A DNA stretch of 64,000 nt, from IMG/VR virus record IMGVR_UViG_3300026478_000263, one strand, 5' to 3'. Below the pieces are notes generated by a model. That model worked only from the letters and a program-made list of their open reading frames with translations, was not told the origin of the DNA and ran no database searches. This DNA comes from a virus. Taxonomy: Duplodnaviria; Heunggongvirae; Uroviricota; Caudoviricetes. Shown piece after piece: positions 10,365 through 45,473 of the stretch (position 1 is its first letter; every line of letters starts with the position of its first letter). A program made the translations under genes and the position numbers.

Positions 10365-11054
10365 ATGTTTGGTGCAAGTTACACAGGTACTGGAATTTAC
10401 CGTTCAGCCGCACAGATCAATGAAGCAATGGGTCGTGTCTATGGACACATGAGCCTAGCAGTTCTTGTGTCTATGATTGTTAGTTACTTTGTAGGTACTA
10501 GCCCAGAATTGTTACAATTCTTCTTTACAGGTGTAATGAAGTGGATTGTAATTTTTGCACCACTGGTTGCTATCTTTGGTGTTAGCATGGTACTATCTAA
10601 TAACCCTAGTAAACAAGTCGCCCAACTATGCTTACATGGTTTTGCGGCATTAATGGGTTTGAGCTTTGCTACAATTTTTGCTATCTTTACCATGGGCAGT
10701 ATTGTTAGTGCGTTTATGGGTGCGGCGATCTTGTTTGGTACAATGAGCTTCTATGGATACTTTACAAAACGTAGTTTGGAAAGTCTTGGACAGTTTATGT
10801 TCATTGGATTGATTGCTATTGTTATTGCCAGTATTGTTAACATCTTTATTGGTAGTAGTGTAATGGCCATGGTTATCAGTGCATTAGCAATTATTATCTT
10901 TCTAGGATTAACTGCTTACGATACACAGCAAATACGAGAAATGGTTTCAATCGACTCTGATCCTGCAACCGAAGTAACAGGTGCATTAACACTATATATG
11001 GATTTTATTAATCTGTTCATTAATTTACTACAGTTGTTTGGTGATAGAAAATAA
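10365..11054 (+). CDS. Bax inhibitor-1/YccA family membrane protein (FtsH modulator)
   Basis: 7 predicted TM helices, 229 aa, C-terminal AYDTQQI...LYMDFINLF motif characteristic of the BI-1/YccA family. Confidence 0.8.
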   Translation: MFGASYTGTGIYRSAAQINEAMGRVYGHMSLAVLVSMIVSYFVGTSPELLQFFFTGVMKWIVIFAPLVAIFGVSMVLSNNPSKQVAQLCLHGFAALMGLSFATIFAIFTMGSIVSAFMGAAILFGTMSFYGYFTKRSLESLGQFMFIGLIAIVIASIVNIFIGSSVMAMVISALAIIIFLGLTAYDTQQIREMVSIDSDPATEVTGALTLYMDFINLFINLLQLFGDRK

Positions 11055-12881: not shown

Positions 12882-12964
12882 GAAAGAGAGGTAGCACTTT
12901 AAATTTTTTAATGGTCTTAGACCAAGGAGCGAGTTAGGGAAGATAACCTAATTCTGTAAAAACG

Positions 12965-13939: not shown

Positions 13940-13948
13940 GAGGGTTCC

Positions 13949-15055
13949 ATGAAATTATGGATGGTAGTATTATGCGTTCCGTTGCTGAGTACATCGTTGG
14001 CCTACGCCGCGATAGGCAAAGTAACGGAACAAATCAATACACCCCCGACTATCCAGAGACAGAATTCGACACTAACGGCGTCGAAAGGGACTGGAGTGGA
14101 AATGAACGATGCGATCAAGACCCAGCAGGGCAAGGTGGGGATAACATTTGAGGACGATACTAAAGTCCAAGTCAATGAAAATTCTAAACTTGTAATTGAT
14201 GATTTCGTTTATGATCCAAAAAGTAAGGCGGGTAAACTAGGTGCTAAGATTGCTCTTGGCACAGTTCGTTATGCGTCTGGACAGATTGCTAAGAATTCGC
14301 CTCAGAATGTGGCCCTTTCTACTCCTAGTGCTACTGTTGCTGTACGCGGTACTGACTTTACTGCCACTGTAGACGAGCTAGGCGAAAGTACAATTATTCT
14401 TTTACCTAGTTGTCCTAATGATAGACCAACACGCTCAGTTAGAGATATTGAAACTAACTGTAAGACTGGCAGTATTGAAGTTAGCAATGATGTAGGTACT
14501 GTAATACTAAATCAACCCTTCCAAGTAACTAAAGTTCAAAGTAGAACACAACCTCCTACACCGCCTAAAGTATTAAATCTAAGTGAAATGGCCATTGGCA
14601 ATATGTTAATTGTCAGTCCTCCGCGCGAAGTCAAACAAGCACAACAAGAACAACAGAGAACATTTAATGCTTTAGACTTTGACTTTTTAAAAGAGAAAGG
14701 TTTGGAGAATTATTTAGATATGCAGGCCAATATGATTTATGAAGATAAGTTAGCCAAAAACTTTTTGTCTAATGATTTCCTTGCTAACTTATTCGACATT
14801 GTGGGAAACATACTGGATCAAAAGTTTTTAGATCCTGTAGATCCTGTGCTACCAGACTATAAAAAGTCCAGTGGCATTATAGCCTACAAAGATGATATGA
14901 GTGTTGAACTCTGTCGCGACAACGGTGCTGACATACAATGTGTTAAAACACCACTCACACAAAACTCAACAATATTACAAACACAGGGCAATTTAGAATT
15001 TAAGAACAGAATAAATCAGGGAGGTAATACTATTATTACCTTGATACAAAAATGA
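13949..15055 (+). CDS. secreted hypothetical protein (curli-cluster associated)
   Basis: signal peptide; beta-rich; sits between curlin-repeat genes, ATGA overlap with downstream gene. Confidence 0.4.
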   Translation: MKLWMVVLCVPLLSTSLAYAAIGKVTEQINTPPTIQRQNSTLTASKGTGVEMNDAIKTQQGKVGITFEDDTKVQVNENSKLVIDDFVYDPKSKAGKLGAKIALGTVRYASGQIAKNSPQNVALSTPSATVAVRGTDFTATVDELGESTIILLPSCPNDRPTRSVRDIETNCKTGSIEVSNDVGTVILNQPFQVTKVQSRTQPPTPPKVLNLSEMAIGNMLIVSPPREVKQAQQEQQRTFNALDFDFLKEKGLENYLDMQANMIYEDKLAKNFLSNDFLANLFDIVGNILDQKFLDPVDPVLPDYKKSSGIIAYKDDMSVELCRDNGADIQCVKTPLTQNSTILQTQGNLEFKNRINQGGNTIITLIQK

Positions 15056-17607: not shown

Positions 17608-18140
17608 GAGCAAAAGAATTTATAAAAGAAGCAGAAGCAAGTGACGCCGATTTAAAAGCAAGATATGGTGACTTCGATCCTGAAGATAAAATAATGCTTC
17701 CAACTACAAAATTAAGCAGAGAACCTGCAGCCACGCTTTGGACAGCATATGATGTAGTTAGAAATATTCTAGGTAGAGATAGAGTAACTGACGATGATGA
17801 CGAATTAGGTCCTGGAATGTATTATGTCTACCAGAGTAGCGGAGATCCAATGTTTAGGGATACAGGCGACGGCGTTGGCAGTATCAACTTACCAAATCTA
17901 GACAGCACCGCGGCACGAGACGTTGCTGTTGCGGCCCACGAAGCATATCACGCTTATGTACACGCTAAAAGTAAAGGCGGCTTTGCACACGCTAATGAAA
18001 AGATTATTAACAACTTAGCAGAAAAATGGTTGCGTAAACATTTATCAGGACAAGCCTTACATACAGCATTAGAACAAATTATAGGCAGTAGAATTAGTTA
18101 CGGCCGCAACCACTTACCAAAGCCAGGATTTAAAAAATGA
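17604..18140 (+). CDS. putative injected zinc metalloprotease with T4-like capsid-targeting N-terminus
   Basis: starts MRAKEFIKEAE (internal Met of track ORF 17460..18140); contains HEAYH (HExxH) motif. Confidence 0.5.
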   Translation: MRAKEFIKEAEASDADLKARYGDFDPEDKIMLPTTKLSREPAATLWTAYDVVRNILGRDRVTDDDDELGPGMYYVYQSSGDPMFRDTGDGVGSINLPNLDSTAARDVAVAAHEAYHAYVHAKSKGGFAHANEKIINNLAEKWLRKHLSGQALHTALEQIIGSRISYGRNHLPKPGFKK

Positions 18141-20188
18141 AAATACAATTCAAAAAAATACTAGTAAGTCCATGGACTGCTTTACTAACTCTAGCACTAG
18201 TTGTTGGTGTCAGAGTTGCAGATCCTACATTTGTTGAAAGCGTAAGACTACGTTATTTTGACACATTAATTACAAGTAAAGAAGTTACAGTTAACAACAT
18301 AGTTACTGTAAATATCGACGAAGCCACGTTAGACAAATATGGTCAGTGGCCCTTACCAAGAGCAGAATATGCTAAACTTGTGAAGGAACTATACCAAAGA
18401 AATGCAGGACTTGTTGTACTTAATGTTCTTATGCCAGAGACAGATCGTACTGGTGGAGATGGTGCGCTAGGACAAACTCTAAAAGAGTTCCCTGTAGTAC
18501 TAGGAAGTGCGCCAGCACAGAAAACAAAGAATACACCACGTGTTCCAGGATCGGCTGTACTAGGTCCAGAACATCTAGATCAAATTATTCAATACCCGGG
18601 ACTAATCGCCAACGTTCCTCAACTAGAACAAAATGCCGCAGGTGTTGGCATTACAGGAACACTTCCAGAAGTAGATGGTGTTAATCGCCGCATGCCGTTA
18701 ATTGTTACTGTAGACGGCAAATTATATCCAGCATTGAGTTTAGAGACACTTAGAGTCGCCGCAGGAGACTCTACCTTCCAAGTAAAACTTTTTGAAGGCG
18801 GCGTTGAGAAAATGCGTATTCCAAAGTTTGGTCCTATTGCTACAGATAGTTTAGGAAGAATTTGGATCGATTGGAGCCAAGAAGCTCATAGCGTTAGTGC
18901 TGTTAAACTTCCAAAAGATTTAGGTGGCGCCGTCGTTATTGTAGGTCCTACTGCCGCTGGTATTAGTAATCCGTTACCGACAAGCAAAGGTGCTGTATTT
19001 CCTCACGAAGTGCAGGCCGCAGTAATTGGTACAATGGTTAACGGCATTGTTATTCAACGTCCCGACTATGCCGACGGGGTTGAAATTTTAGCATTAGTAT
19101 CACTTGGCATATTATTAATTTTCTTATCGAGGTGGACTTATGTTGGCATTGGTGCTACTGTGGTTATTGTTGGTGCCATCGTTCCTGGTACTATCTACGC
19201 TTTCAATAATTGGCTCGTCTTGGGAGACGCGACTGCGATCGCGTTTGGCCTTATTATCGTTGCTCTTCATTGTTATGGCGTTAAGTTTATAAGCGAGTTT
19301 TTACAGAAACAGGCAATTAAGAAACAGTTCGCTGGATACTGTAGTAAGGAAGTAGTAGAAATGCTACAAAAAGATCCAGACCTAATCAAGCGTGGTGTGC
19401 GTAAAGACGTATCCGTTATGTTCAGTGACTTGCGTGGCTTTACACCCATTGGAGAACACTACGGTGATGATGTTGCTGGATTAGGCAAGTATATGAACGG
19501 TTACATGGATGCTATTAGTCAGCCTATCATGGACAACAAGGGTATGGTCATAAAGTATGTAGGTGACGCAAGTATGCACATACACGGTGCTCCGATTGAA
19601 GATCCTAATCATGCCCGTACTATTGTTGCTGTTGGTTTACAGATGTTAGATGCTGTTGATGAGTATACTAAACTAATGGAAGCACAAGGCTTACCACCAG
19701 CCGCAATGGGTTGGGGTTGTAACTCAGGTATTGGCTTTATTGGTGAGATGGGATCAACTGACAGACATAGTTACGACATCTTAGGTGACATGGTTTCAAC
19801 CGCCGCTCGTTTAGAAGCACGTTGTAAGGCCTATGGCGTGTTATGTATCATCGGTGCTGAAACTTACAACCGTACTAAAGATGACTTCTTCTATCTAATG
19901 CTAGATAACTTACAACCTAAAGGCAAAACTGTAGCAGACTTAATCTATACAGCATTAAGAACCAAAGGTGAAGATTACAGTAAAGATAAAGTACAGCACG
20001 AGTTGATGCATGCCTTGTATAAACAAAAGAAGTTCGACGAAGCAGCCGCTATGTGTAAAAAACTAAAAGGCAACTTTGGTGGACAAATGGACAAGTACTA
20101 CAAAATCTGGATTGAACGTTGCGAGTTTATGAAAGAACAGAACCTTCCAGATAATTGGAATGGTGAATTCATAGCACATGAAAAATAA
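18137..20188 (+). CDS. CHASE2 sensor domain / class III adenylate(guanylate) cyclase
   Basis: N-terminal TM plus periplasmic CHASE2-like domain and several TM helices; C-terminal cyclase motifs VSVMFSDLRGFT ... KYVGDASM. Confidence 0.8.
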   Translation: MKIQFKKILVSPWTALLTLALVVGVRVADPTFVESVRLRYFDTLITSKEVTVNNIVTVNIDEATLDKYGQWPLPRAEYAKLVKELYQRNAGLVVLNVLMPETDRTGGDGALGQTLKEFPVVLGSAPAQKTKNTPRVPGSAVLGPEHLDQIIQYPGLIANVPQLEQNAAGVGITGTLPEVDGVNRRMPLIVTVDGKLYPALSLETLRVAAGDSTFQVKLFEGGVEKMRIPKFGPIATDSLGRIWIDWSQEAHSVSAVKLPKDLGGAVVIVGPTAAGISNPLPTSKGAVFPHEVQAAVIGTMVNGIVIQRPDYADGVEILALVSLGILLIFLSRWTYVGIGATVVIVGAIVPGTIYAFNNWLVLGDATAIAFGLIIVALHCYGVKFISEFLQKQAIKKQFAGYCSKEVVEMLQKDPDLIKRGVRKDVSVMFSDLRGFTPIGEHYGDDVAGLGKYMNGYMDAISQPIMDNKGMVIKYVGDASMHIHGAPIEDPNHARTIVAVGLQMLDAVDEYTKLMEAQGLPPAAMGWGCNSGIGFIGEMGSTDRHSYDILGDMVSTAARLEARCKAYGVLCIIGAETYNRTKDDFFYLMLDNLQPKGKTVADLIYTALRTKGEDYSKDKVQHELMHALYKQKKFDEAAAMCKKLKGNFGGQMDKYYKIWIERCEFMKEQNLPDNWNGEFIAHEK

Positions 20189-25972: not shown

Positions 25973-26551
25973 ATGCAGTACAATGAATTTTTAGATTGGG
26001 TAGATATTGACAAGTTTTCAGATGCTTGTAATAACATCTGTCATCAGACAGTATTAAATGAATCCACAAATCGAATGATGAAAGAAAAATTCATTATTGC
26101 GGCAATGCAATTATCTAATCATAAAAAGAACATCGAGTGGACTGACGTTCGCGATTACGATATAAAATTTACCGATTGGACCAATGGCGACGTAGAAGTT
26201 AAAACTGGCAACGAACCTTTGTTCTACGCAAAGTCAGGAACTCCTAAAAAGACAATCAGTCTTAAATTAAAAAATGTTTACGAAAGTAAGAATCAAAGAA
26301 CTACACTAGACAAAGTTTTTAATCATTTAATGATAGTCCAAATTAAAGGAACATTCGCTGTTGCCTTTGTAGATTACGCAACAGTTAAGGCTAATCTAAA
26401 ACAATTAACAGACGGCTTCTTAGTCAAACTAACACACGACCAAATAAATATTGTGTACAAAAAAGATATGAGAAATGAACCGACATCTTGGACAATTGAC
26501 TTAGATCCAAAACCTTGGATATTTGGCACATTAGCAAAGGCAGGCGTTTAA
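25973..26551 (+). CDS. hypothetical protein
   Basis: 192 aa intact ORF. Confidence 0.4.
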   Translation: MQYNEFLDWVDIDKFSDACNNICHQTVLNESTNRMMKEKFIIAAMQLSNHKKNIEWTDVRDYDIKFTDWTNGDVEVKTGNEPLFYAKSGTPKKTISLKLKNVYESKNQRTTLDKVFNHLMIVQIKGTFAVAFVDYATVKANLKQLTDGFLVKLTHDQINIVYKKDMRNEPTSWTIDLDPKPWIFGTLAKAGV

Positions 26552-26885
26552 AGAATTGTTGTAATCCCTTCAAAGCGAAGGACTTCTGGACGCGGGTTCG
26601 ACTCCCGCCAGGTCCACCATAAGGACATAAATTTACTTTGGTATTCATTGTAAATTTACTTTGGTATTGTGTTTTTATGATGGGCCTGCCATGGTTTCGA
26701 CAGGGGTAGATAGTAGAGACGGCAACACGGTAGGCGATGACCGTAAATCAAGCAAAACTAGTAAATGCAAACGCATCTACATTTGAGTACTTCACTGTTG
26801 AAGGCTTCACAGCCGACAATGGTCTAGTAGCAGCCTAAGAAACTGCAACTCCGGGGTAGGACTTACCTTGTAACCCAAACAACCA
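26552..26885 (+). ncRNA. ssrA: circularly permuted (two-piece) tmRNA
   Basis: acceptor piece 26552-26619 ends GGACGCGGGTTCGACTCCCGCCAGGTCCACCA (T-arm + CCA); coding piece starts GGGCCUG at 26682, which pairs with CAGGUCC giving a G3-U70 wobble; tag frame ends ...GLVAA then TAA at 26836. Confidence 0.6.
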
Positions 26886-26910
26886 AAGGGCCTTCGGGCC
26901 CTTTTTTATT
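26886..26910 (+). terminator. rho-independent terminator
   Basis: GGGCCTTCGGGCCC hairpin + TTTTTTATTTT; identical hairpin reused at 35323. Confidence 0.75.
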
Positions 26911-26922
26911 TTACCAAACACA

Positions 26923-26951
26923 TTGACAGATGCCCTGTCCGAGCCTATAAT
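26923..26951 (+). promoter_or_regulatory. sigma70 promoter TTGACA-17-TATAAT
   Basis: perfect consensus hexamers. Confidence 0.6.
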
Positions 26952-32619: not shown

Positions 32620-32693
32620 GCGCTTGAAGCTCAATGGATAGGCAGGGACTTCTAAACTCCCGATAGCAGGTTCGATTCCTGTCTAGCGCACCA
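32620..32693 (+). tRNA. tRNA-like gene with anticodon CTA (amber-suppressor type), slightly non-canonical
   Basis: acceptor GCGCTTG/CTAGCGC (one U-U), D-arm, anticodon stem GGGAC/CTCCC with loop TTCTAAA (CUA), T-arm GCAGG-TTCGATT-CCTGT, discriminator A, encoded CCA. Confidence 0.45.
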
Positions 32694-37815: not shown

Positions 37816-37890
37816 TGTATCCCTAGTGTTAATGGCAGCACGACAGTCTCCAAAACTGCTAGTCGGGGTTCGAGTCCCTGGGGGTACGCC
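37816..37890 (+). tRNA. tRNA-Trp (CCA)
   Basis: acceptor GTATCCC/GGGGTAC, anticodon loop CTCCAAA, T-loop TTCGAGT, CCA encoded. Confidence 0.75.
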
Positions 37891-37895
37891 AATAA

Positions 37896-37973
37896 TGCAA
37901 CGGTGGCAGAGAGGCCCAATGCAACGGATTGCAAATCCGTAAAACCGTCAGTTCAAATCTGACCCGTTGCTCC
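37896..37973 (+). tRNA. tRNA-Cys (GCA)
   Basis: acceptor GCAACGG/CCGTTGC, anticodon arm ACGGA-TTGCAAA-TCCGT, T-arm GTCAG-TTCAAAT-CTGAC. Confidence 0.8.
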
Positions 37974-37981
37974 AGGTTATA

Positions 37982-38071
37982 TCCCCCGTTAGCTCATGGA
38001 GAGCAGGTCGGCTTATAACCGATTAATCTAGATAAGGTCCAGGATGAGGTTCGATTCCTCAACGGGGGACC
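37982..38071 (+). tRNA. class II-like tRNA (90 nt, long variable arm), anticodon loop CTTATAA (formal anticodon TAT) - isotype unresolved
   Basis: acceptor CCCCCGT/ACGGGGG + A + CCA, T-arm TGAGG-TTCGATT-CCTCA, 21-nt variable region. Confidence 0.5.
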
Positions 38072-38243
38072 ATAAGGAGAATATTATGGCAGTACTTGTA
38101 GTGTTAGTTATAATGTTCGTGTTGTATCAAGTTTTGAAAAAATATTAAAAGGAGAGTAGCATGAAACGTGCTAAACGTTAGTGTCACTCTAGATCTCCCG
38201 TATGGTCTAGGGTTGGCACGTAAAATCAAATCAATACGTACAA

Positions 38244-38319
38244 CCCTGTTTAGCGTCAATGGTAGCGCACTTGACTCTTAATCAATGAGGTGTGAGTTCG
38301 AATCTCACAGCAGGGACCA
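38244..38319 (+). tRNA. tRNA-Lys (CTT)
   Basis: anticodon loop CTCTTAA, T-arm GTGAG-TTCGAAT-CTCAC, CCA encoded. Confidence 0.7.
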
Positions 38320-38322
38320 TAT

Positions 38323-38397
38323 GGGGGTATAACTTAATGGTTAAAGTAGCGGGCTTTTAACCCGTAAATCAGAGTTCGATTCTCTGTGCCCCTACCA
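38323..38397 (+). tRNA. tRNA-Lys (TTT)
   Basis: anticodon arm GCGGG-CTTTTAA-CCCGT, T-arm CAGAG-TTCGATT-CTCTG. Confidence 0.8.
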
Positions 38398-38579
38398 TAT
38401 GAAAGCATTCTTAACTGGTCGCATAGCGTCAGTAGTAAGGACGGGCCACCATCTTATGACGAAAAAGGCATAAGAGTGCTTCCATATGGTAGTGTATAAA
38501 AACAAACTAACCACAGCCAGGAACTATAGACTCTGGGTGCATAGCGCATTGTCGTTAGTTTCTTTTTGTATAGTATTAT

Positions 38580-38653
38580 TCCTGGATAGTTAAATGGTAT
38601 AACAATCGGCTGATAACCGGTCATTCTGAGTTCAATTCTCGGTCCAGGAACCA
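38580..38653 (+). tRNA. tRNA-Ile (GAT)
   Basis: perfect acceptor TCCTGGA/TCCAGGA, anticodon loop CTGATAA. Confidence 0.75.
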
Positions 38654-38659
38654 ATTTAC

Positions 38660-38734
38660 ATAGCGTTCGACTTCTGGGGAGGTCATCACCCTTTCAAGGT
38701 GACTAGGCGGGTTCGATCCCCGTACGCTATACCA
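38660..38734 (+). tRNA. tRNA-Glu (TTC)
   Basis: perfect acceptor ATAGCGT/ACGCTAT, anticodon arm TCACC-CTTTCAA-GGTGA. Confidence 0.75.
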
Positions 38735-38819
38735 GAGCAAATAGAGATCTTGTGGGTTCATCCATGTTCTCTCAATGTTTGTTAGTTTCAATGGGTGGTA
38801 TAGAAACTAACACCAATTT

Positions 38820-38894
38820 GGGGGCAGTAGTGGGCTACGGTCTTCCCTTGCAAGGAAGATGTCTAGAAGGATTCGATTTCCTCGGCCTCCACCA
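38820..38894 (+). tRNA. tRNA-Ala (TGC)-like with truncated D-arm
   Basis: acceptor GGGGGCA/GGCCTCC with G3-U70, anticodon arm CTTCC-CTTGCAA-GGAAG; D region only 15 nt, variable 8 nt. Confidence 0.45.
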
Positions 38895-38983
38895 AATTTG
38901 CGACAATGGTGGGTTAACCGGCCTTGCCGGGGCATTCTAGATTACCGCGAAGGTTCGAGTCCTTCGGTCGCAATTATTTTTAT

Positions 38984-39061
38984 CTCTGCGTAATGTCAAT
39001 CTGGTAGACGGCCTGATCTGGAGTCAGGAGGCTGTACGTTCGAATCGTACCGTGGAGACCA
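38984..39061 (+). tRNA. tRNA-Pro (TGG)-like (C33 in anticodon loop)
   Basis: anticodon arm CCTGA-TCTGGAG-TCAGG, T-arm GTACG-TTCGAAT-CGTAC, CCA encoded. Confidence 0.5.
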
Positions 39062-39066
39062 ATTTT

Positions 39067-39141
39067 GCCCTTGTATCCTTAGTGGTAGAGGTCCTGTTTT
39101 GTAAGCAGGGTGTGGTGGTTCGATTCCATCCTGGGGCACCA
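39067..39141 (+). tRNA. tRNA-Thr (TGT), second copy
   Basis: anticodon arm CCTGT-TTTGTAA-GCAGG, T-arm GGTGG-TTCGATT-CCATC. Confidence 0.6.
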
Positions 39142-39367
39142 AGTTTTGTAAGTGTCAGCAAGAGAATGTCACGCTATTGTAGGTAAGTTCGAACTACCTT
39201 AATAGTAAAAGGGGACGGGTTCAACTCCCGGGGGATCGGAAGATCCCTGCAGATTGGTTGCTAACTGGACTAGTATCCCAAGTGACGTACCGAGTCCCAG
39301 CCGGCTTTATATACATGGGTGAATGGTTGCTATAACGATGGGGCAACTACTTACAAATTCAATCTGT

Positions 39368-39441
39368 TGGCCTATGGTGTAATGGTAACACAACTGACTT
39401 TGACTCAGTCGTTCCAGGTTCGAGTCCTGGTAGGCCTGCCA
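39368..39441 (+). tRNA. tRNA-Gln (TTG)
   Basis: anticodon arm ACTGA-CTTTGAC-TCAGT, discriminator G, weak 1-72 pair as in bacterial tRNA-Gln. Confidence 0.7.
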
Positions 39442-39448
39442 ATTTTAA

Positions 39449-39525
39449 CGGTCCTTAACTCAATGGATTAGAGTGCCAGTCTTCGAAACTGGAGGTTGGG
39501 AGTTCGAGTCTCTCAGGGCCGGCCA
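39449..39525 (+). tRNA. tRNA-Arg (TCG)
   Basis: anticodon arm CCAGT-CTTCGAA-ACTGG, D-stem ACTC/GAGT. Confidence 0.75.
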
Positions 39526-39527
39526 AT

Positions 39528-39602
39528 GGTGTTGCTAGTGTAGTGGTCCGCACGGCTGTCTGTGAAACAGTAAGGCAGGGTTCGATTCCCGGCTTCACCC
39601 CA
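39528..39602 (+). tRNA. tRNA-His (GTG) with G-1
   Basis: anticodon arm GCTGT-CTGTGAA-ACAGT, extra 5' G pairing with C73, two U-U mismatches in acceptor stem. Confidence 0.6.
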
Positions 39603-39608
39603 AATATC

Positions 39609-39684
39609 GCCGCTTTAGCAAATGTGGTCATTGCACCGGTTTGAAGCACCGAGGAACTTGGTTCGATCCCAAGGGGCGGCACCA
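39609..39684 (+). tRNA. tRNA-Phe (GAA)
   Basis: anticodon loop TTGAAGC, T-arm CTTGG-TTCGATC-CCAAG. Confidence 0.75.
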
Positions 39685-39691
39685 TAATTAT

Positions 39692-39768
39692 GCCCTTGTA
39701 CGCTAATTGGTAATGCGAATGGATTTAAAATCCGTTGTGTGTAGGTTCGAATCCAACCAAGGGTACCA
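39692..39768 (+). tRNA. type-I (short variable arm) tRNA with anticodon TAA (Leu codon UUA) - atypical
   Basis: anticodon arm ATGGA-TTTAAAA-TCCGT, 5-nt variable loop, discriminator A, CCA encoded. Confidence 0.55.
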
Positions 39769-39769
39769 T

Positions 39770-39841
39770 GCCTCTGCTGATGGAGCAGTGCCAGGTCTTC
39801 TAAACCAGGTTATAGTAGTTCGAATCTACTCAGAGGCGCCA
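39770..39841 (+). tRNA. tRNA-Arg (TCT)-like, short D-arm
   Basis: perfect acceptor GCCTCTG/CAGAGGC, anticodon loop CTTCTAA, T-arm AGTAG-TTCGAAT-CTACT; 72 nt. Confidence 0.5.
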
Positions 39842-39843
39842 AG

Positions 39844-39917
39844 GCTCTTGTAGGTAAATGGTATACCAGTGTCTTGGTACGACACAATCGAAAGTTCGAT
39901 TCTTTCCTTGAGCACCA
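39844..39917 (+). tRNA. tRNA-Thr (GGT)
   Basis: anticodon arm GTGTC-TTGGTAC-GACAC; two U-U mismatches in acceptor. Confidence 0.65.
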
Positions 39918-39922
39918 GATAT

Positions 39923-40000
39923 ACCCCTGTGGACAAATTGGTAAAGTCGTCTCTCTCAAAAGGAGAAGTTCTCTCCGTTCGAATCGGAGCAGGGGTACCA
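39923..40000 (+). tRNA. type-I tRNA with anticodon CAA (Leu codon UUG) - atypical
   Basis: perfect acceptor ACCCCTG/CAGGGGT, anticodon arm TCTCT-CTCAAAA-GGAGA, 6-nt variable loop, discriminator A. Confidence 0.55.
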
Positions 40001-40046
40001 CATTTGTAGCAGATTCTATCTACAACGAATTATACAAGTAAAACAA

Positions 40047-40136
40047 CGAAGCGTGGCAGAGTCCGGTTTATTGCACCTGTCTTGAAAACAGACGATCCGA
40101 AAGGGTCCGTGAGTTCGAATCTCACCGCTTCGGCCA
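40047..40136 (+). tRNA. tRNA-Ser (TGA)
   Basis: class II, perfect acceptor CGAAGCG/CGCTTCG, anticodon loop CTTGAAA, long variable arm GATCC-GAAA-GGGTC. Confidence 0.8.
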
Positions 40137-40143
40137 AAAGGTG

Positions 40144-40172
40144 TTGACTTGTTTAACAGTTGATCGTATAAT
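40144..40172 (+). promoter_or_regulatory. sigma70 promoter TTGACT-17-TATAAT inside tRNA array
   Basis: consensus hexamers 9 nt upstream of tRNA-Ser(GCT). Confidence 0.55.
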
Positions 40173-40180
40173 ACAAATAT

Positions 40181-40275
40181 AGTGAGTTGGCCGAGCTGGT
40201 CGAAGGCACCTTCCTGCTAAGAAGGCATTCCTGCAAAAACGGGGATCAAGGGTTCGAATCCCTTACTCACTGCCA
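40181..40275 (+). tRNA. tRNA-Ser (GCT)
   Basis: class II, perfect acceptor AGTGAGT/ACTCACT, anticodon arm CCTTC-CTGCTAA-GAAGG. Confidence 0.8.
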
Positions 40276-40282
40276 AAATGTC

Positions 40283-40311
40283 TTGACTAGTTTCTAAAGT
40301 TCATATACAAT
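40283..40311 (+). promoter_or_regulatory. sigma70 promoter TTGACT-17-TACAAT inside tRNA array
   Basis: consensus hexamers upstream of tRNA-Tyr. Confidence 0.5.
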
Positions 40312-40362
40312 AGAGACTAGTTAAGAAATTAACCTAGTTCTTTAAAAATTTCAAGCAGATAT

Positions 40363-40448
40363 GGATGTGTAGGAAAATTGGTAACCCCAGTGGACTGTAA
40401 ATCCGCCGCCTTACGGCACTGCTGGTTCGACTCCAGCCGCATCCACCA
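40363..40448 (+). tRNA. tRNA-Tyr (GTA)
   Basis: class II, anticodon arm GTGGA-CTGTAAA-TCCGC, T-arm GCTGG-TTCGACT-CCAGC. Confidence 0.75.
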
Positions 40449-41093
40449 TTAAGAAATAGCATTGACGGGTATCGTCTATGGACGCATAGACTTATGAAGG
40501 ATAAGGCCATCTTACCCTTCTGAGAAAACCGTGAACAATGGCTTATGAGGAGAATCGAACTCCACTCAGAAATACGTTTCATCCCATAGGGTGTAATGTT
40601 ATTTTTTAATGGTAAAAATTTAAGGGTAGTTTATTATCCTGTTGGCGGTTCGCCGTTGACGAAGAATAAGTTGAGTGATCAACCCAAAGGAGGTAAGCCT
40701 ACGCAACTCCGCCAGTAATGGTTCATGTAAACAAGCCTGCTCACTACCGCGAGGTAGCGTTCACTGAGAAGACCGGTGGATGTAACAATGAAGCAAGTGT
40801 TAGGGAAAGAATGTGTATCGACTGGCCCGCAAGGGAACCAGGGTGCATGAAAAGTAACGGGTGGTGCTGACTTCCTAACAAAACCAACTTGCGAATTGGT
40901 ATGAGAAAGGGTAGTGTATTTGTCCAAGGGGTCGCTCCTAAGGGCTTGTATGCAATATTAATGGTTAGTGGACTGTTTTGATGCAGGACATTGATCGTGA
41001 AATATCACTGAGTAGTCCGCGAGACAAAAGGTATGTGGTGAGTTGTATTCAGTAATCCAAAAGGTTATTGAGCAACAGAGGCAGCTCATCGCG

Positions 41094-41169
41094 GTAGGTT
41101 TGATATAGCGTAATGGTAACGCAATTGCCTCTTAAGCAATGGACTGTTGGTTCGATCCCAACTATCGAT
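41094..41169 (+). tRNA. tRNA-Lys(CTT)-like, defective acceptor stem, no CCA (possible pseudo-tRNA)
   Basis: D-arm GCG-TAATGGTAA-CGC, anticodon arm ATTGC-CTCTTAA-GCAAT, T-arm GTTGG-TTCGATC-CCAAC; 5' acceptor pairs poorly. Confidence 0.3.
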
Positions 41170-41588
41170 TATAAAATGCAAAGACTGCCTCGGTCATATG
41201 TGAAAAGCATCTAATACTCGAGCCGCAAGGTAATCGAGTCAGACGTAGCTCGCAAGGTGAAATCTGTTTATGCTGGAAGTTTCGTAAGTGGTTAGCGCCG
41301 CTGAATGGCTCGCAAGGTCAACGGAGTAGATAGCGTAGAATAGCATATGGCGACAAGACTACTGCCTGTCTTTAAAAACGGCGATGCTGATAGTGGACAT
41401 AGGTACAGTAATGGCTTATGTGGATGTCTAGAGAAGGTTGGCTCGCAAGGCTGACTATAATGCTAGAGGCACTATTGGCTAACGTATAATCTCAGCGTTA
41501 GCACTATTCTAAAACACATTAGCTCGAACCGAATAACGGCATTATAAATGCTTCTGGTAGTTGGTTAGTGTGTTTCAGAATAGAATTT

Positions 41589-41665
41589 GCACCGTTAGCT
41601 CAGTTGGTCAGAGCGCCGGCCTGTCACGTCGGAGGCCAGGGGTTCAAGTCCCCTACGGTGCGCCA
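41589..41665 (+). tRNA. tRNA-Asp (GTC)
   Basis: perfect acceptor, anticodon loop CTGTCAC identical to the E. coli tRNA-Asp loop. Confidence 0.85.
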
Positions 41666-41679
41666 AGATAACTATTAAT

Positions 41680-42483
41680 ATGAAAACACTTTTAATTTTA
41701 GGAGATTGCCAAAGTAATGGCAATAATTGTTTGGCTGGTGACATAGTCAACGACGATGCTCCGAGGACTTGGAGTCTACGTTTCCATAATGATTTTAGAA
41801 GTGTTTTTAAATGGTATCTAAAACATAGAAAAGAAAACAATGTTACAACACCTATGCCCAATGGCAATATGGAAAATGTTGTTTGGCATTATCTATGGGA
41901 AGAAGAACAAAAAGCCGCATGGCCTAATTTCTTAAATGTTTCCAATGTAGTTAATATATCTATTAACGGTGGACATTTTATAGGTCATCACAAAAGATTA
42001 AAACAGTACCTAGCAGAGAATCCTAAACCGGATCATGTATTAGTTACAGATTACACGTTTAGTCATATAGCACACAGTTTCAAATATAACAATCAACGAT
42101 ATGTATTTGAACGTGAAAATTATGTAGACGGAGAATGGAATCCAGATAGATATCCAATTGAAGTTCATAAAAAGCGATTAAACGGTATTGCTTTTCAAAA
42201 AAGTCAAAGCAAAGATTGGCATATTCGTAGACATAGAAATGGTTACAATATGTTAATTAAGTTTTTAGATTCTCAAAATATTAAATGGACGACTGTTAGG
42301 TTTGGAGATCCTAATCCTGACAACTCAGAAATTTTTAAAGAGTTTATGCACACTGGTATAGATTGTACTGAATACGGAAAACAGTATATGAGTGCTAATG
42401 GTGAGAATGCAAAAATTAAATTGTCTGTGCAAGAAAAAATTGCAACGACAATTCAGGAATACTTAAATAGTATTGTCAGTTAA
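41680..42483 (+). CDS. SGNH/GDSL-like hydrolase (putative) embedded in tRNA array
   Basis: N-terminal LILGDCQSNGNN resembles the GDS(L) block; 267 aa intact ORF. Confidence 0.4.
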   Translation: MKTLLILGDCQSNGNNCLAGDIVNDDAPRTWSLRFHNDFRSVFKWYLKHRKENNVTTPMPNGNMENVVWHYLWEEEQKAAWPNFLNVSNVVNISINGGHFIGHHKRLKQYLAENPKPDHVLVTDYTFSHIAHSFKYNNQRYVFERENYVDGEWNPDRYPIEVHKKRLNGIAFQKSQSKDWHIRRHRNGYNMLIKFLDSQNIKWTTVRFGDPNPDNSEIFKEFMHTGIDCTEYGKQYMSANGENAKIKLSVQEKIATTIQEYLNSIVS

Positions 42484-42484
42484 T

Positions 42485-42568
42485 GCCCTGGTGGTGGAAT
42501 GGTAGACACGCTGGTCTTAGAAGCCAGTGGCGAGAGCCGTGAGAGTTCGAGTCTCTCCTGGGGCACCA
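42485..42568 (+). tRNA. tRNA-Leu (TAG)
   Basis: class II with 13-nt variable arm, anticodon arm CTGGT-CTTAGAA-GCCAG. Confidence 0.8.
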
Positions 42569-42574
42569 AAATAT

Positions 42575-42650
42575 GCGGGTGAAGTGTTTGTGGTTACACG
42601 TCAGTCTTCCAAACTGAAATAGACGAGTTCAACTCTCGCCTCCCGCTCCA
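42575..42650 (+). tRNA. tRNA-Gly (TCC)
   Basis: anticodon arm TCAGT-CTTCCAA-ACTGA; U-U at 6-67. Confidence 0.7.
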
Positions 42651-42655
42651 TCATT

Positions 42656-42732
<77 letters not shown>

Positions 42733-42742
42733 ATGTTAGTTT

Positions 42743-42817
42743 GCCTGGTTAGCTCAGTGGTAGAGCGTCTCGTTTACACCGAGAGGGTCGGCAGTTCGAA
42801 ACTGTCACCAGGTACCA
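42743..42817 (+). tRNA. tRNA-Val (TAC)
   Basis: anticodon arm TCTCG-TTTACAC-CGAGA. Confidence 0.8.
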
Positions 42818-42824
42818 AGTTTAT

Positions 42825-42900
42825 TCCCTAGTAGCTCAGCGGTAGTAGCACCTGACTGTTAATCAGGGTGTCGGTGGTTCGATCCCACCCTGGGGAGCCA
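42825..42900 (+). tRNA. tRNA-Asn (GTT)
   Basis: anticodon arm CCTGA-CTGTTAA-TCAGG. Confidence 0.8.
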
Positions 42901-42906
42901 AGTAAT

Positions 42907-42982
42907 GCACGGTTCGTCTATCGGTTTAGGACACTGGCCTTTCACGTCAGTAAGACGGGTTCGATTCCCGTACCGTGTACCA
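42907..42982 (+). tRNA. tRNA-Glu (TTC), second copy
   Basis: anticodon loop CTTTCAC as in E. coli tRNA-Glu. Confidence 0.75.
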
Positions 42983-43030
42983 TATATGGCCTTTGGATAA
43001 GTTATAAACTTTGCCTTAGGTTCTTCATAT

Positions 43031-43106
43031 GCGGGAGTAGCTCAGTTGGTAGAGCATTACCTTGCCAAGGTAAATGTCGCGAGTTCGAACCTCGTCTCCC
43101 GCTCCA
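43031..43106 (+). tRNA. tRNA-Gly (GCC)
   Basis: perfect acceptor GCGGGAG/CTCCCGC, anticodon arm TTACC-TTGCCAA-GGTAA. Confidence 0.85.
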
Positions 43107-43172
43107 GTTTTGCCAAAAGGCATTGATTTAGATTTAAAAGATTGTATAATAGAAACATTAAAGGAAAAACAA

Positions 43173-43745
43173 ATGAATATCTCCCTACGTAAGGCAAATG
43201 CACTTCAGAACAGTATCAACGATACCGTCAAAGGTTTCCAGTTTGAGACCACAGTAAAAATCAACGAGTTCCAAGAAGCGGAACAAGAAATTTCCAAAGT
43301 TGCAGGAACACTCTGCGACAACCTTACACGCAGAGATGCGTTAGTGGAAGCACTTTACGAGATTCGTAAAAGTGTCAGCGGTGCTAACACAGAAGTTAGA
43401 ATCGACACTAGATTGGCCGATGTTGCACATCTAGAAAAACAAATCCAATTCTACAACGGATTGGCTAGTAAGACCGTTCGCGAAAGCGCAAAGGTTGTAG
43501 CAGGTCGTTTGGACAAGATCCGTAACGACAAAAGCGAAAACCGTCGTAGCATCTATGGCTACAACGACACAGTAGACACTAGTGTGCTCACTCGTGAAGA
43601 TCTAGACGGATTCCGTCGTAGAGTGGCAACTGCTAAAAAGCAGAAACAAAAACTTCAGGATGAAATCCTAGAGTTAAATGTTCAGACAACTATCCAATTG
43701 TCTGACAAAACAGAAGCAGTTCTGCAAGCAGAAGGTTTACTGTAA
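43173..43745 (+). CDS. hypothetical coiled-coil protein
   Basis: AAAGGAAAAAC RBS then ATG at 43173 (track ORF 43074 N-terminus overlaps tRNA-Gly and was trimmed). Confidence 0.4.
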   Translation: MNISLRKANALQNSINDTVKGFQFETTVKINEFQEAEQEISKVAGTLCDNLTRRDALVEALYEIRKSVSGANTEVRIDTRLADVAHLEKQIQFYNGLASKTVRESAKVVAGRLDKIRNDKSENRRSIYGYNDTVDTSVLTREDLDGFRRRVATAKKQKQKLQDEILELNVQTTIQLSDKTEAVLQAEGLL

Positions 43746-44082
43746 CAGACCCCGCGTTAACTCAGCGTGATAGAGTTAGGTAATTGCTACACCTTAATGG
43801 CTCGGTGCATTGGATCTACCGCAAGGCTTGTTTAAAGCGACTTGAGAAATCACAAAGGCGGACCTCAGCACCGTCTAAATGGAAAGGCTAGTGGACAGAG
43901 TAACAGCTCGGTTTAGGGCTCCTGTGGTGGGAGTGGCTAGACACTTTATAAATGCTCTCTGAGCTGAACTACACTGGATAACACGAGTTAGGTGCTAAGT
44001 CGACTACCCACCGAAAGTGCCAGGAAGATAAGGAGCTCAGCAGGTTTCGTTCGAGTCGAACAGAGAGCACCTATAAAGTTAT

Positions 44083-44156
44083 CGCGGGATAGAGAAACGG
44101 TAACTCAAGAGTCTCATAAGCTCTAGATCCTGGTTCGATTCCAGGTCCCGCAACCA
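44083..44156 (+). tRNA. tRNA-Met (CAT) with C1-A72 mismatch (initiator-like acceptor end)
   Basis: begins CGCGGGA, ends TCCCGCAACCA as in bacterial tRNA-fMet; anticodon loop CTCATAA. Confidence 0.65.
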
Positions 44157-44695
44157 AGTTTTGGCAAAGGCGAAAGCCCGAGCCTGGAGTAGAGAAGGAG
44201 ATTAGGATAGACAGACTTAGGCTACATGCCTAAGGTTTGATCTCTTATAGAGACCGAACATCAACTACTGGCAAAACGTCTTGAAAACGTTTCGTGCTTG
44301 TGTGAACCAGTTCTATATATTAATCGACTTTGTGAGTTGCTAACTGGAAATATACAGGTCCCTGTGCTTTGCGCCTTGTGACTTGTTAAGGGTATCTTTA
44401 TAGAGCCCGCTTGTACATTGTCCAGTCTATTACTTGCCTTTCTCTCTCCACCCCTTTTATTAGTAAGTAGTTAAGGTTCTAAAAGCATCCGCAAGGAGTT
44501 AACAAAGATCGGAAGTTTTTGTTAATTGAAGTTATAAACTTTAATGCTGTAGAGTATATGTATCAAGCGCCGGTGCAAGGTGAGCGGATTGAGACTACAA
44601 GAACTTCATGTTGGGCTAGACAAAGAGAGGGACGAATCGCACCGTCGGATGGCCTTACCCAAACCAAAACTCTCGGGACATCTTACTAATAATCT

Positions 44696-44770
44696 GGTAA
44701 CGTAGCATAATGGTCGTGCACCTCCTTCATACGGAGCAAGGTGTGAGTTCGAATCTCACCGTTACCACCA
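44696..44770 (+). tRNA. tRNA-Met/Ile2 (CAT), second CAT tRNA
   Basis: perfect acceptor GGTAACG/CGTTACC, anticodon loop TTCATAC. Confidence 0.7.
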
Positions 44771-44793
44771 TAACACCATAATCTGCCCACTAA

Positions 44794-45249
44794 ATGCTAA
44801 ATAGTTATATGCTAACATTAATCAGAGAAACTACTAATCCATTACTTGACTATATCAAGGATGATCCAGTACGTCCAGAAATTCCCAAAGAATTTCGTGT
44901 TAGCGGTAGCAGATTTGTCGCCACCACTGTAGAAGGCGAAAAACCACGTGCAATGGTCTGTGTTAGTCTGCACGATTTTGTGCCAACAACTGTTGAAGAT
45001 TTGGCTAAAACACCCACAGAACCAACTACAGCAATCTTCTATACAATTTGGAGTTATGCGCCGGGTGCGGCCGCAGAGCTACTTTTTGGTGTAGTGGATC
45101 AAATAAAAGAACTTTTCCCAACTGTTAATCGTTTTGTAACACTTAGCCCAAAAACTGAAATGGCCTACAAGTTCCATATCAGAAATGGTGCCTGTGTGTT
45201 GCAAGAAAACGACAACACAGTGAACTACGAATACCTCATAACCCGTTGA
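44794..45249 (+). CDS. hypothetical protein
   Basis: 151 aa ORF between tRNA genes. Confidence 0.4.
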   Translation: MLNSYMLTLIRETTNPLLDYIKDDPVRPEIPKEFRVSGSRFVATTVEGEKPRAMVCVSLHDFVPTTVEDLAKTPTEPTTAIFYTIWSYAPGAAAELLFGVVDQIKELFPTVNRFVTLSPKTEMAYKFHIRNGACVLQENDNTVNYEYLITR

Positions 45250-45280
45250 CAAACTGCTGAAAAGGTTATATACTTAGTAT

Positions 45281-45388
45281 GTGACCGTGAGCGAATAGGC
45301 AGAGCTCCAGGACTGTTGTGAAACACTCCGTGGGTCGGGACTAGGCGATATGCCGTCCTTGGAGGTTCGAACCCTCCCGGTCACACCA
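45281..45388 (+). ncRNA. 108-nt tRNA-like RNA (canonical acceptor/T-arm/CCA, non-canonical 72-nt core)
   Basis: perfect 7-bp acceptor GTGACCG/CGGTCAC + A + CCA and T-arm GGAGG-TTCGAAC-CCTCC, but no standard D/anticodon arms could be folded. Confidence 0.4.
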
Positions 45389-45398
45389 AATTCCCTCC

Positions 45399-45473
45399 CT
45401 CGCTATAGTTCAATGGATAGAACGACTCTCTCCTAAAGAGTAAGTCTACGTTCGATTCGTAGTAGCGGGACCA
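45399..45473 (+). tRNA. tRNA-Arg (CCT)
   Basis: anticodon arm ACTCT-CTCCTAA-AGAGT, T-arm CTACG-TTCGATT-CGTAG. Confidence 0.8.

Follow-up and report, generated by a model that had tools for sequence, protein, structure and literature searches.

GOLLD RNAs typically lie beside the transfer RNA (tRNA) islands of phages, and tRNAs placed in GOLLD linkers are known (PMC12286853). An island of this kind is described here from the viral record IMGVR_UViG_3300026478_000263 (Caudoviricetes), of which one stretch of 64,000 nucleotides, the window, was analysed; the island occupies positions 37817-45473 and contains several atypical tRNAs. For the individual tRNAs, the closest described systems lie in several groups of organisms. 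Type I tRNA-Leu has bacterial precedent in the natural type I tRNA-Leu(CAA) of Streptomyces coelicolor, which is charged by its own leucyl-tRNA synthetase (LeuRS) (PMC6614811). The nev-tRNAs of nematodes are descendants of tRNA-Leu that have its D-arm and its variable arm (PMC3333845). The definition of allo-tRNAs is an acceptor/T configuration of 8/4 or 9/3 together with a presumed identity for Ser, and allo-tRNA(UAU) genes are described as abundant in Acidobacteria, with possible five-stem junctions (PMC5389517).

The present region is best explained as an island of genes for tRNAs and non-coding RNAs in a large virulent phage that is uncultured. The array and its GOLLD RNA are already known kinds of object. 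A family of two-armed tRNAs with a UAU anticodon appears to be uncharacterised in the literature searched, apart from a partial overlap with allo-tRNA(UAU).

Gene content and codon match of the island

Thirty-one + strand tRNA genes are called by ARAGORN between 37817 and 45473 at default settings, and a lowered threshold adds Ala(UGC) at 38820-38894 and Pro(UGG) at 38984-39061, the latter scoring 31.6 bits in Rfam against a cut-off of 29. ARAGORN and Rfam together give 33 credible co-oriented tRNA genes in 7.7 kb, with all 20 amino acids represented, and the array of more than 30 genes proposed in a first-pass annotation, made from the sequence alone, is therefore real. All 32 isotype and anticodon assignments in that annotation were recovered in place. 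The gene it missed is the tRNA-Lys(CUU) at 41098-41171, the only tRNA of the array that does not encode its CCA end. Covariance models could have moved the atypical genes to other anticodon registers or marked them as pseudogenes; Rfam keeps the registers, and no pseudogene call was seen. Of the two embedded sigma-70 promoters proposed, the site at 40144 agrees with the consensus at 11 of 12 positions and that at 40283 at 10 of 12. The description of the 7.7 kb as dominated by tRNA genes fits the 33 tRNAs but not the gaps, which hold the GOLLD RNA, further structured RNAs and three open reading frames (ORFs). Besides the GOLLD RNA and its embedded tRNA-Lys, a second long tRNA-like RNA, further conserved RNAs and the promoter preceding a 108-nt element had escaped notice. 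Three further ARAGORN calls lie outside the array: a tRNA-Thr (10267), a tRNA(CUA) of suppressor type (32620) and a permuted transfer-messenger RNA (tmRNA) at about 26466-26929.

Syntenic tRNA arrays are present in the related contigs L001 and L006 and in others, and related contigs reach 278 kb. The window carries rIIA, DNA ligase and other phage protein families as hallmark context. No close cultured relative was found: a nucleotide search with the array matches only single tRNAs of unrelated phages, and the window rIIA is at most about 30-39% identical to those of known phages. The tmRNA fits the betaproteobacterial model, and the window DnaK is 68% identical to proteobacterial-type sequences.

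Codons were counted on the phage side only, in 50 ORFs of the window (about 15,000 codons; GC content 41%). TTA, TTG and CTA account for 32%, 23% and 19% of Leu codons, or 74% together, and the three phage Leu tRNAs match these three codons; AGA stands at 25% among Arg codons, and ATA at 14% among those for Ile. These counts directly support the codon-usage compensation suggested earlier, and the island probably provides an AT-rich phage with tRNAs that match its codons, so that it relies less on the host pool. In the mechanism proposed, the internal sigma-70-like promoters would transcribe array tRNAs, nearly all of which encode their own CCA ends, and with the codon-matched tRNAs phage genes would be translated with less need of host tRNAs. 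The odd members are probably working genes of conserved lineages and not decayed copies, namely the tRNA-Leu without its variable arm, a widespread two-armed reader of AUA, the Arg(UCU) and Ala(UGC) tRNAs with miniature D-arms, and an initiator type short of G-C pairs. The analysis shows directly the gene content, the anticodon registers, the codon match, and the conservation and covariation of the genes; expression, the amino acids charged to the odd tRNAs and their use by the ribosome are inferred here from features of the sequence.

Three points weigh against this account. Several elements of the island, namely the long tRNA-like RNAs, the GOLLD RNA and the structured RNAs, have no decoding role, and therefore codon supply is not the whole story and the island does more than supply tRNAs. 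Escherichia coli LeuRS is reported not to charge the natural type I tRNA-Leu of Streptomyces (PMC6614811), and thus charging of the short Leu tRNAs would depend on the host enzyme. UAU anticodons are poor substrates for the E. coli isoleucyl-tRNA synthetase (IleRS), and on the ribosomes of this species UAU misreads AUG (PMC3575796), so that a plain UAU tRNA would be problematic in an ordinary host.

An alternative of distinctly lower probability than codon supply is counter-defence, in which the island would make good the cleavage or depletion of host tRNAs during infection, and the odd shapes would escape or soak up host nucleases that target tRNA. Evasion of anticodon nucleases by phage tRNAs is documented. 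All 20 amino acids are represented in the set, a wider range than codon bias by itself would call for, some of the tRNA-like RNAs that do not decode have promoters of their own, and a tmRNA and a suppressor tRNA lie nearby. However, no odd feature of this island is tied to a known nuclease, and the anticodon loops are canonical. The comparisons neither favour nor refute the decoys for anticodon nucleases of the host and the atypical decoding that the first-pass annotation had suggested. Counter-defence is moreover compatible with codon-matched supply, and the two are not mutually exclusive.

Short tRNA-Leu and the two-armed tRNA(UAU) family

The following four genes, all on the + strand, are the starting points for the comparisons in this section.

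37983..38072 (+) class II-shaped two-arm tRNA(UAU), 90 nt, 7/5 acceptor/T, A73-CCA; ARAGORN, Rfam, family analysis
39692..39768 (+) type I tRNA-Leu(UAA), 5-nt variable loop, G1-U72, A73; ARAGORN, Rfam 55.6 bits
39923..40000 (+) type I tRNA-Leu(CAA), 6-nt variable loop, A73, Leu-type D-loop; ARAGORN, Rfam 54.8 bits
42485..42568 (+) tRNA-Leu(UAG), class II, short 13-nt variable arm; ARAGORN

The two type I tRNAs had been given Leu anticodons, and the Rfam covariance model retains both, UAA at 39692 and CAA at 39923, in canonical 7-nt loops; their variable loops, of 5 and 6 nt, contain no stem. The same isoacceptor can be long in one related phage and short in another. The Leu(UAG) gene of the window is 84 nt long, and those of L001, L002, L003, L004 and L014 are 77 nt long; for Leu(UAA) the length is 77 nt both here and in L006, and 84-85 nt in the other arrays; Leu(CAA) has 77-81 nt in all of the related arrays. 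Long and short orthologues align outside the variable region and show paired stem changes.

A count of distinct genes across 237 fetched phage loci, with those of 80 nt or less taken as short, gives short forms for 42 of 55 Leu(CAA), 26 of 80 Leu(UAG), 14 of 96 Leu(UAA) and 6 of 11 Leu(GAG) genes, compared with one of 158 Ser genes of all anticodons and none of 55 Tyr genes. A73 is present in each of the 78 short Leu genes that have a CCA end, and the D-loops of the short genes show AAU(U)GGUA, a tRNA-Leu motif. Among the other classes, long tRNA-Leu is nearest in 25 of 45 cases; this link is weaker for the UAA gene of the window than for the CAA gene. The annotation of one cultured phage, of Rhodococcus, includes a tRNA-Leu(caa) of 76 nt. 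These comparisons lead to the conclusion that the short tRNAs with Leu anticodons represent ordinary lineages of tRNA-Leu from which the variable arm has been lost, and that the loss is recurrent and Leu-specific in phages. They also suggest, indirectly, that LeuRS tolerates loss of the arm. TTA and TTG together make up 55% of Leu codons, and therefore only Leu identity would spare the phage's own proteins. Frequent loss of the variable arm in phage tRNA-Leu, and almost never in tRNA-Ser or tRNA-Tyr, amounts to a natural experiment on the need of the synthetases for this arm.

The class II-shaped tRNA near 37982 likewise keeps the UAU register assigned to it, starting at 37983 and scoring 45.9 bits in Rfam, where 18 nt of the variable region are placed as an insertion; far from being a single oddity, it is one member of a large family. 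Its extra arm is AUC-UAGAUAA-GGU, and the gene recurs in L001, L004, L006 and L014. A pattern built from it has matches in at least 119 viral contigs, nearly all of them tRNAs of 88-96 nt with a UAU anticodon. A second search, which used only a D-arm variant and the anticodon, gave at least 105 distinct sequences, about 98 class II-shaped and three type I, and a third left the anticodon free. At least 181 distinct sequences were collected in all; such family sizes from public collections are lower bounds, and the successive scan samples overlap. Cultured phages of Vibrio, Aeromonas, Sinorhizobium and Synechococcus give matches, and two inspected Vibrio phage records annotate the two-armed tRNA(UAU) as a 93-nt tRNA-Ile. 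Single-gene copies were found in Xanthomonas, Pseudoxanthomonas, Microbulbifer, Marinobacter and Ruegeria, and the family is also present in Sulfitobacter. In Xanthomonas, one conserved copy lies downstream of a RadC-like ORF, a call made by reading the sequence. In Acidobacteria (Pyrinomonadaceae, Acidobacteriaceae, Terriglobia) the two-armed tRNA(UAU) is found within large irregular arrays of up to 32 tRNA genes in 8 kb. A literature search for phage class II tRNA-Ile(UAU) found nothing; the search was incomplete and does not prove novelty.

The shape of the family is well defined. Five helices were found unaided by RNAalifold in 32 diverse representatives, with 92% of cells paired, versus 58% in shuffles, and a covariation score of 0.84, versus 0.20 in shuffles (none of 500 reached 0.84) and 0.15-0.19 in slid controls. 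The window gene and the 32 representatives fold in the 7/5 acceptor/T configuration. The extra arm consists of a covarying stem of 3-5 bp and a 7-nt loop, flanked by unpaired linkers. Among the sequences collected, the loop follows the pattern N-A-GAU-N-N (CAGAUUA in 94, CAGAUAA in 66, UAGAUAA in 7), with GAU at the three anticodon-equivalent positions. The anticodon loop proper is YUUAUAN, canonical with U33 and A37, in 179 of 180. Of the E. coli-type Ile identity elements that lie elsewhere in the molecule, A73 is present in 150 of 152 members, and U12-A23 in 25, C4-G69 in 19 and C29-G41 in 6 of the 32 representatives. Rare phage tRNAs with short extra arms and Asn, Trp, Gly, Pro, Thr or Val anticodons were also seen (in L016, L043, L073, L091, L110, L119, L131, L173, L184, L221 and L236); their extra loops are of about 4 nt and are not 7-nt anticodon-like loops.

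A possible reading, put forward tentatively, is that the two-armed UAU tRNA is a widespread class that splits decoding, by the UAU arm, from IleRS recognition, by the GAU arm, and thereby bypasses lysidine synthesis. The extra arm would be an identity handle whose GAU loop shows the Ile anticodon to IleRS, which reads G34-A35-U36-A37-A38; the U33-bearing UAU arm would decode AUA, the A at position 2 of the extra loop (~33) would stop the handle from decoding, and phages and some bacteria would read AUA as Ile without making lysidine. Class I IleRS would leave a variable arm facing solvent, and therefore the two arms would have to swap their stacking on the D-stem for the handle to reach the anticodon-binding domain; this geometry is the main obstacle. 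In addition, about half of the family has U and not A at the 37-equivalent of the extra loop, and other Ile identity pairs, C4-G69 and C29-G41, are only partly conserved in the representatives. In favour of the handle, AGAU sits on the covarying stem in about 100 of 101 class II members of the second search, which were picked without reference to the loop. In 61 of 65 co-sampled genes for tRNA-Ile(GAU) the anticodon loop is YUGAUAA, from which the extra loop differs mainly by A in place of U33. The GAU loop was coupled with a UAU anticodon in 49 of 49 among the matches listed in the third search, a sample that overlaps the earlier ones. The core without the extra arm resembles type I Thr, Met and Ile tRNAs, not those for Leu, Ser or Tyr. 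The 9-10 nt between the extra loop and the T stem fit a 5-nt stem strand plus a normal variable loop of 4-5 nt, and many fetched stretches with this tRNA hold only one to three tRNAs. The rejection of UAU by E. coli IleRS (PMC3575796) points the same way. Six acidobacterial allo-tRNA variants changed from UAU to CUA inserted neither Ser nor Ala, two were toxic, and a function other than translation was suggested for such tRNAs (PMC5389517); the lack of Ser or Ala insertion would also fit Ile charging.

Atypical decoding is considerably less probable than the identity handle. It would have the UAU tRNA charged with Leu, so that AUA is partly read as Leu, and the short tRNAs with Leu anticodons charged with some other amino acid. 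LeuRS is not known to read the anticodon. A73, found in 150 of 152 family members, and the frequent G1-U72 are features shared with short tRNA-Leu(UAA) genes; the 1-72 pair is G-U or A-U in 112 of 152. A tRNA of comparable shape, nev-tRNA-Ile(UAU), is charged only with Leu (PMC3333845). However, the Leu-type D-arm motif occurs in none of the 181 family members, the nearest relatives are the type I tRNAs for Thr, Met and Ile, and Leu charging would leave the invariant GAU loop unexplained. The short Leu tRNAs are orthologous to long ones, and with TTA and TTG at more than half of Leu codons, mischarging of the UAA and CAA tRNAs would harm most proteins of the phage. The two-armed family makes two questions testable: by what means phages read AUA independently of the host lysidine pathway, and how an ordinary IleRS charges a UAU tRNA.

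Remaining tRNAs, structured RNAs and ORFs

The remaining features of the island, in order of position, are as follows.

37817..37891 (+) tRNA-Trp(CCA); ARAGORN, Rfam 48 bits
37897..37974 (+) tRNA-Cys(GCA); ARAGORN, Rfam
38244..38319 (+) tRNA-Lys(CUU); ARAGORN, Rfam
38323..38397 (+) tRNA-Lys(UUU); ARAGORN, Rfam
38580..38653 (+) tRNA-Ile(GAU); ARAGORN, Rfam
38660..38734 (+) tRNA-Glu(UUC); ARAGORN, Rfam
38820..38894 (+) tRNA-Ala(UGC), truncated D-arm; ARAGORN at lowered threshold, L006 orthologue
38899..38975 (+) tRNA-like remnant; T-arm and 6/7 acceptor stem
38984..39061 (+) tRNA-Pro(UGG), weak score; Rfam 31.6 bits, ARAGORN at lowered threshold
39067..39141 (+) tRNA-Thr(UGU), U-U at 6-67; ARAGORN
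39142..39367 (+) conserved structured RNA, about 225 nt; BLAST, RNAalifold
39368..39441 (+) tRNA-Gln(UUG); ARAGORN, Rfam
39449..39525 (+) tRNA-Arg(UCG); ARAGORN, Rfam
39528..39601 (+) tRNA-His(GUG), G-1, tandem acceptor U-U; ARAGORN, Rfam 36.1 bits
39609..39684 (+) tRNA-Phe(GAA); ARAGORN
39770..39841 (+) tRNA-Arg(UCU), 72 nt, miniature D-arm; ARAGORN, Rfam 25 bits
39844..39917 (+) tRNA-Thr(GGU), U-U at 5-68 and 6-67; Rfam
40047..40136 (+) tRNA-Ser(UGA); ARAGORN, Rfam
40144..40172 (+) sigma-70-like promoter TTGACT-17-TATAAT; 11/12 consensus matches
40181..40275 (+) tRNA-Ser(GCU); ARAGORN, Rfam
40283..40311 (+) sigma-70-like promoter TTGACT-17-TACAAT; 10/12 consensus matches
40363..40448 (+) tRNA-Tyr(GUA); ARAGORN, Rfam
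~40613..41520 (+) GOLLD RNA; Rfam RF02032, conservation in relatives
41098..41171 (+) tRNA-Lys(CUU) inside GOLLD RNA; ARAGORN, Rfam
41589..41665 (+) tRNA-Asp(GUC); ARAGORN, Rfam
41680..42483 (+) ORF of 267 aa, predicted SGNH/GDSL-hydrolase fold; structure prediction, conservation
42575..42650 (+) tRNA-Gly(UCC), U-U at 6-67; ARAGORN, Rfam
42656..42732 (+) tRNA-Pro(UGG); ARAGORN, Rfam
42743..42817 (+) tRNA-Val(UAC); ARAGORN, Rfam
42825..42900 (+) tRNA-Asn(GUU); ARAGORN, Rfam
42907..42982 (+) tRNA-Glu(UUC), second copy; ARAGORN, Rfam
43031..43106 (+) tRNA-Gly(GCC); ARAGORN, Rfam
43074..43745 (+) ORF without family match; likelier start ATG 43174, as the listed start overlaps tRNA-Gly
43746..43952 (+) conserved structured RNA block, no Rfam family; BLAST
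43954..44075 (+) second long tRNA-like RNA; 7-bp acceptor stem, T-arm, A73
44083..44156 (+) initiator-like tRNA(CAU); C1xA72, A11-U24, 1/3 G-C pairs
44696..44770 (+) elongator-type tRNA-Met(CAU); ARAGORN
44794..45249 (+) ORF of 151 aa; weak match to malonyl-CoA decarboxylase C-terminal domain
45246..45274 (+) sigma-70-like promoter TTGACA-17-TATACT; directly upstream of the 108-nt element
45281..45388 (+) 108-nt tRNA-like RNA; acceptor stem, D-arm, T-arm, CCA
45399..45473 (+) tRNA-Arg(CCU); ARAGORN, Rfam

The truncated D-arms described for the Arg(UCU) gene at 39770 and the Ala(UGC) gene at 38820 are present. That of Arg(UCU) is identical in L001, where the T stem changes compensatorily, and a 72-nt Arg(UCU) is also found in L005 and L006. 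The Ala(UGC) tRNA has G3-U70, A73, an A7xG66 mismatch and a D-arm with a 4-bp stem and a 4-nt loop, and its L006 orthologue shows compensatory changes in the D-stem and the anticodon stem. Acceptor U-U mismatches do recur, as had been noticed: at 6-67 in Thr(UGU) and Gly(UCC), at 5-68 and 6-67 in Thr(GGU), and at 4-69 and 5-68 in His(GUG), as read from the ARAGORN drawing. Twelve of 39 distinct Thr(GGU) genes have U-U at 6-67 or at both 5-68 and 6-67. The CAU tRNA at 44083 does have the C1xA72 mismatch reported for it, together with A11-U24, and has only one of the three G-C pairs of the anticodon stem (29-41, 30-40, 31-39). Its orthologue in L006 has A x A at 1-72, and of 39 distinct related genes with a 1-72 mismatch, 24 have two of the G-C pairs, 15 have one and none has all three, and the incomplete signature is therefore a property of the phage lineage.

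Separately, tRNA-Phe(GAA) at 39609-39684, whose anticodon loop is UUGAAGC with G37, contains a 37-nt stretch that is identical in 13 viral contigs (L003-L015), the other tRNAs of which differ much. A single base separates the gene of the window from that of L001, a contig whose proteins share only about 56% identity with those of the window.

That the atypical members are pseudogenes or chance cloverleaves is very improbable. Their covariance scores can be low (25 bits for Arg(UCU), 31.6 for the Pro gene at 38985, 36 for His), and the element at 38899-38975 has neither a CCA end nor a counterpart in the relatives compared. All other odd genes, however, recur in diverged contigs with paired stem changes, and these compensatory changes largely refute decay, which survives as an explanation for 38899-38975 only. 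This element, with a T-arm, a 6/7 acceptor stem and a tri-loop hairpin in place of the anticodon arm, is the only one that looks like a decayed copy.

The core of the GOLLD RNA, at 41035-41498, matches positions 1-416 of RF02032, the full model, with 207.2 bits against a cut-off of 150, and a block of about 908 nt conserved in six related loci gives a wider extent of about 40613-41520. The tRNA-Lys(CUU) that was overlooked lies within the GOLLD match, in the linker, and has a U-U mismatch at 2-71. A 165-nt block at 40449-40613, between tRNA-Tyr and the GOLLD RNA, shows conservation of its own, apart from GOLLD, in L218, L182, L010 and L007. No Rfam matches were found for the remaining gaps at E values up to 5. 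The RNA at 39142-39367, between tRNA-Thr and tRNA-Gln, has BLAST matches at more than 20 phage loci and a multi-helix fold with compensatory changes in 27 of 47 pairs predicted by RNAalifold. The block at 43746-43952 is also structured and conserved, its 43800-43950 part in at least ten fetched loci, and just upstream of the initiator-like tRNA the long tRNA-like RNA at 43954-44075 shows compensatory T-stem changes in L006. The whole of 43746-44695 (about 950 nt) contains this block, the long tRNA-like RNA and the initiator-like tRNA; it has no ORF above 56 aa and no Rfam match, and perfectly conserved blocks alternate with variable stretches in comparison with L006. By analogy with GOLLD, it may be one large non-coding RNA with embedded tRNAs.

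The 108-nt element at 45281-45388 has the perfect 7-bp acceptor stem, T-arm and CCA first described for it, and a D-arm, but to call its core unfoldable was too strong: the core folds into an arm of about 10 bp with a non-conserved 6-nt loop, and a long variable arm. An arm and loop of this kind make it a tRNA-like RNA that is unable to decode. The element is 96% identical in L006; a homologue in L133, 69% identical, has its promoter arranged in the same way, and its acceptor stem and T stem show compensatory changes.

Of the ORFs, the one of 267 aa is conserved inside the tRNA islands of diverged relatives, and the exact protein occurs in 81 blocks of the assembly collection. Sequence family searches gave it no family match. 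Its predicted fold is that of an SGNH hydrolase (predicted local distance difference test score 90; Foldseek match to TesA, E 4.5e-5), and the motif GDCQSNGNNC is invariant, with Cys at the usual position of the nucleophilic Ser. The spacer at 38073-38243, conserved in about ten loci, contains two mini-ORFs with Shine-Dalgarno-like sequences, MAVLVVLVIMFVLYQVLKKY and MKRAKR.

Elsewhere in the window, the permuted (two-piece) tmRNA at 26466-26929 scores 138 bits with the Rfam tmRNA_permuted model and 129 bits with beta_tmRNA, and its tag peptide according to ARAGORN is ANASTFEYFTVEGFTADNGLVAA; the relative L002 has a permuted tmRNA too, within its tRNA array. The suppressor-type tRNA at 32620-32693, with anticodon CUA, is labelled 'Pyl' by ARAGORN and scores 38.4 bits in Rfam. 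Recoding of amber codons by this tRNA was considered and set aside: TAG is a rare stop (one of 50 ORFs), yet no ORF that needs read-through was found. Accessory genes that are unusual for a phage lie at 3768-5633, 7054-7734, 10365-11054, 11712-15055 and 18137-20188, and encode a full-length DnaK, a ferredoxin-dependent bilin reductase, a Bax1-inhibitor-like protein, CsgG and curlin-repeat proteins, and a CHASE2-adenylate/guanylate cyclase.

Comparison with known systems

The island shares with described phage tRNA islands that contain GOLLD its clustered co-oriented tRNAs, a GOLLD match above the cut-off and a tRNA inside the GOLLD RNA, and there is no essential difference; a further trait of GOLLD RNAs is assembly into a 14-mer nanocage. 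The tRNA at 44083 resembles bacterial initiator tRNA-fMet in its C1xA72 mismatch, its acceptor CGCGGG...CCCGCAACCA and A11-U24, and differs in having one of the three consecutive G-C pairs of the anticodon stem. The short phage tRNA-Leu resemble the type I tRNA-Leu(CAA) of S. coelicolor (PMC6614811) and mitochondrial tRNA-Leu in three respects: their Leu anticodon lies in a canonical loop, their variable loop is 5-6 nt long, and the same gene set also includes class II tRNA-Leu. Unlike in S. coelicolor, short forms are found in three isoacceptors (UAA, CAA and UAG), and which one is short varies between phages. The phage genes also keep A73, which is not an identity element in S. coelicolor (PMC6614811).

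The two-armed tRNA(UAU) shares a class II shape, the UAU anticodon and A73 with the nematode nev-tRNA-Ile(UAU), but differs in lacking the Leu D-arm, in its Thr/Met/Ile-like core and in its 7-nt GAU loop. Membership among the nev-tRNAs is ruled out by the D-arm (0 of 181) and by the nearest neighbours, which are tRNAs for Thr, Met and Ile. The likeness to the allo-tRNA(UAU) of Acidobacteria (PMC5389517) extends to the UAU anticodon, the long extra arm, a frequent D-arm tetraloop and possible five-stem junctions, and the long variable arm with a predominant UAU anticodon, an allo-tRNA-type trait, is present in the family. The same GAU-loop motif was found in acidobacterial tRNA arrays in the genome scan made here. 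The window gene differs in being 7/5 with A73, and the GAU loop is not mentioned in the accessible part of that text, which proposes that most allo-tRNA(UAU) are not used in translation (PMC5389517). Membership among the allo-tRNAs as defined is ruled out by the 7/5 configuration of the window gene and the 32 representatives.

Finally, the tRNA-Ile(UAU) of Mycoplasma mobile (PMC3575796) is comparable in offering an unmodified-type UAU for AUA as an alternative to the lysidine route. That tRNA is type I and relies on a changed IleRS (Arg865) and a changed ribosome (PMC3575796), whereas the phage family adds an extra arm, and its hosts presumably have the ordinary enzyme.

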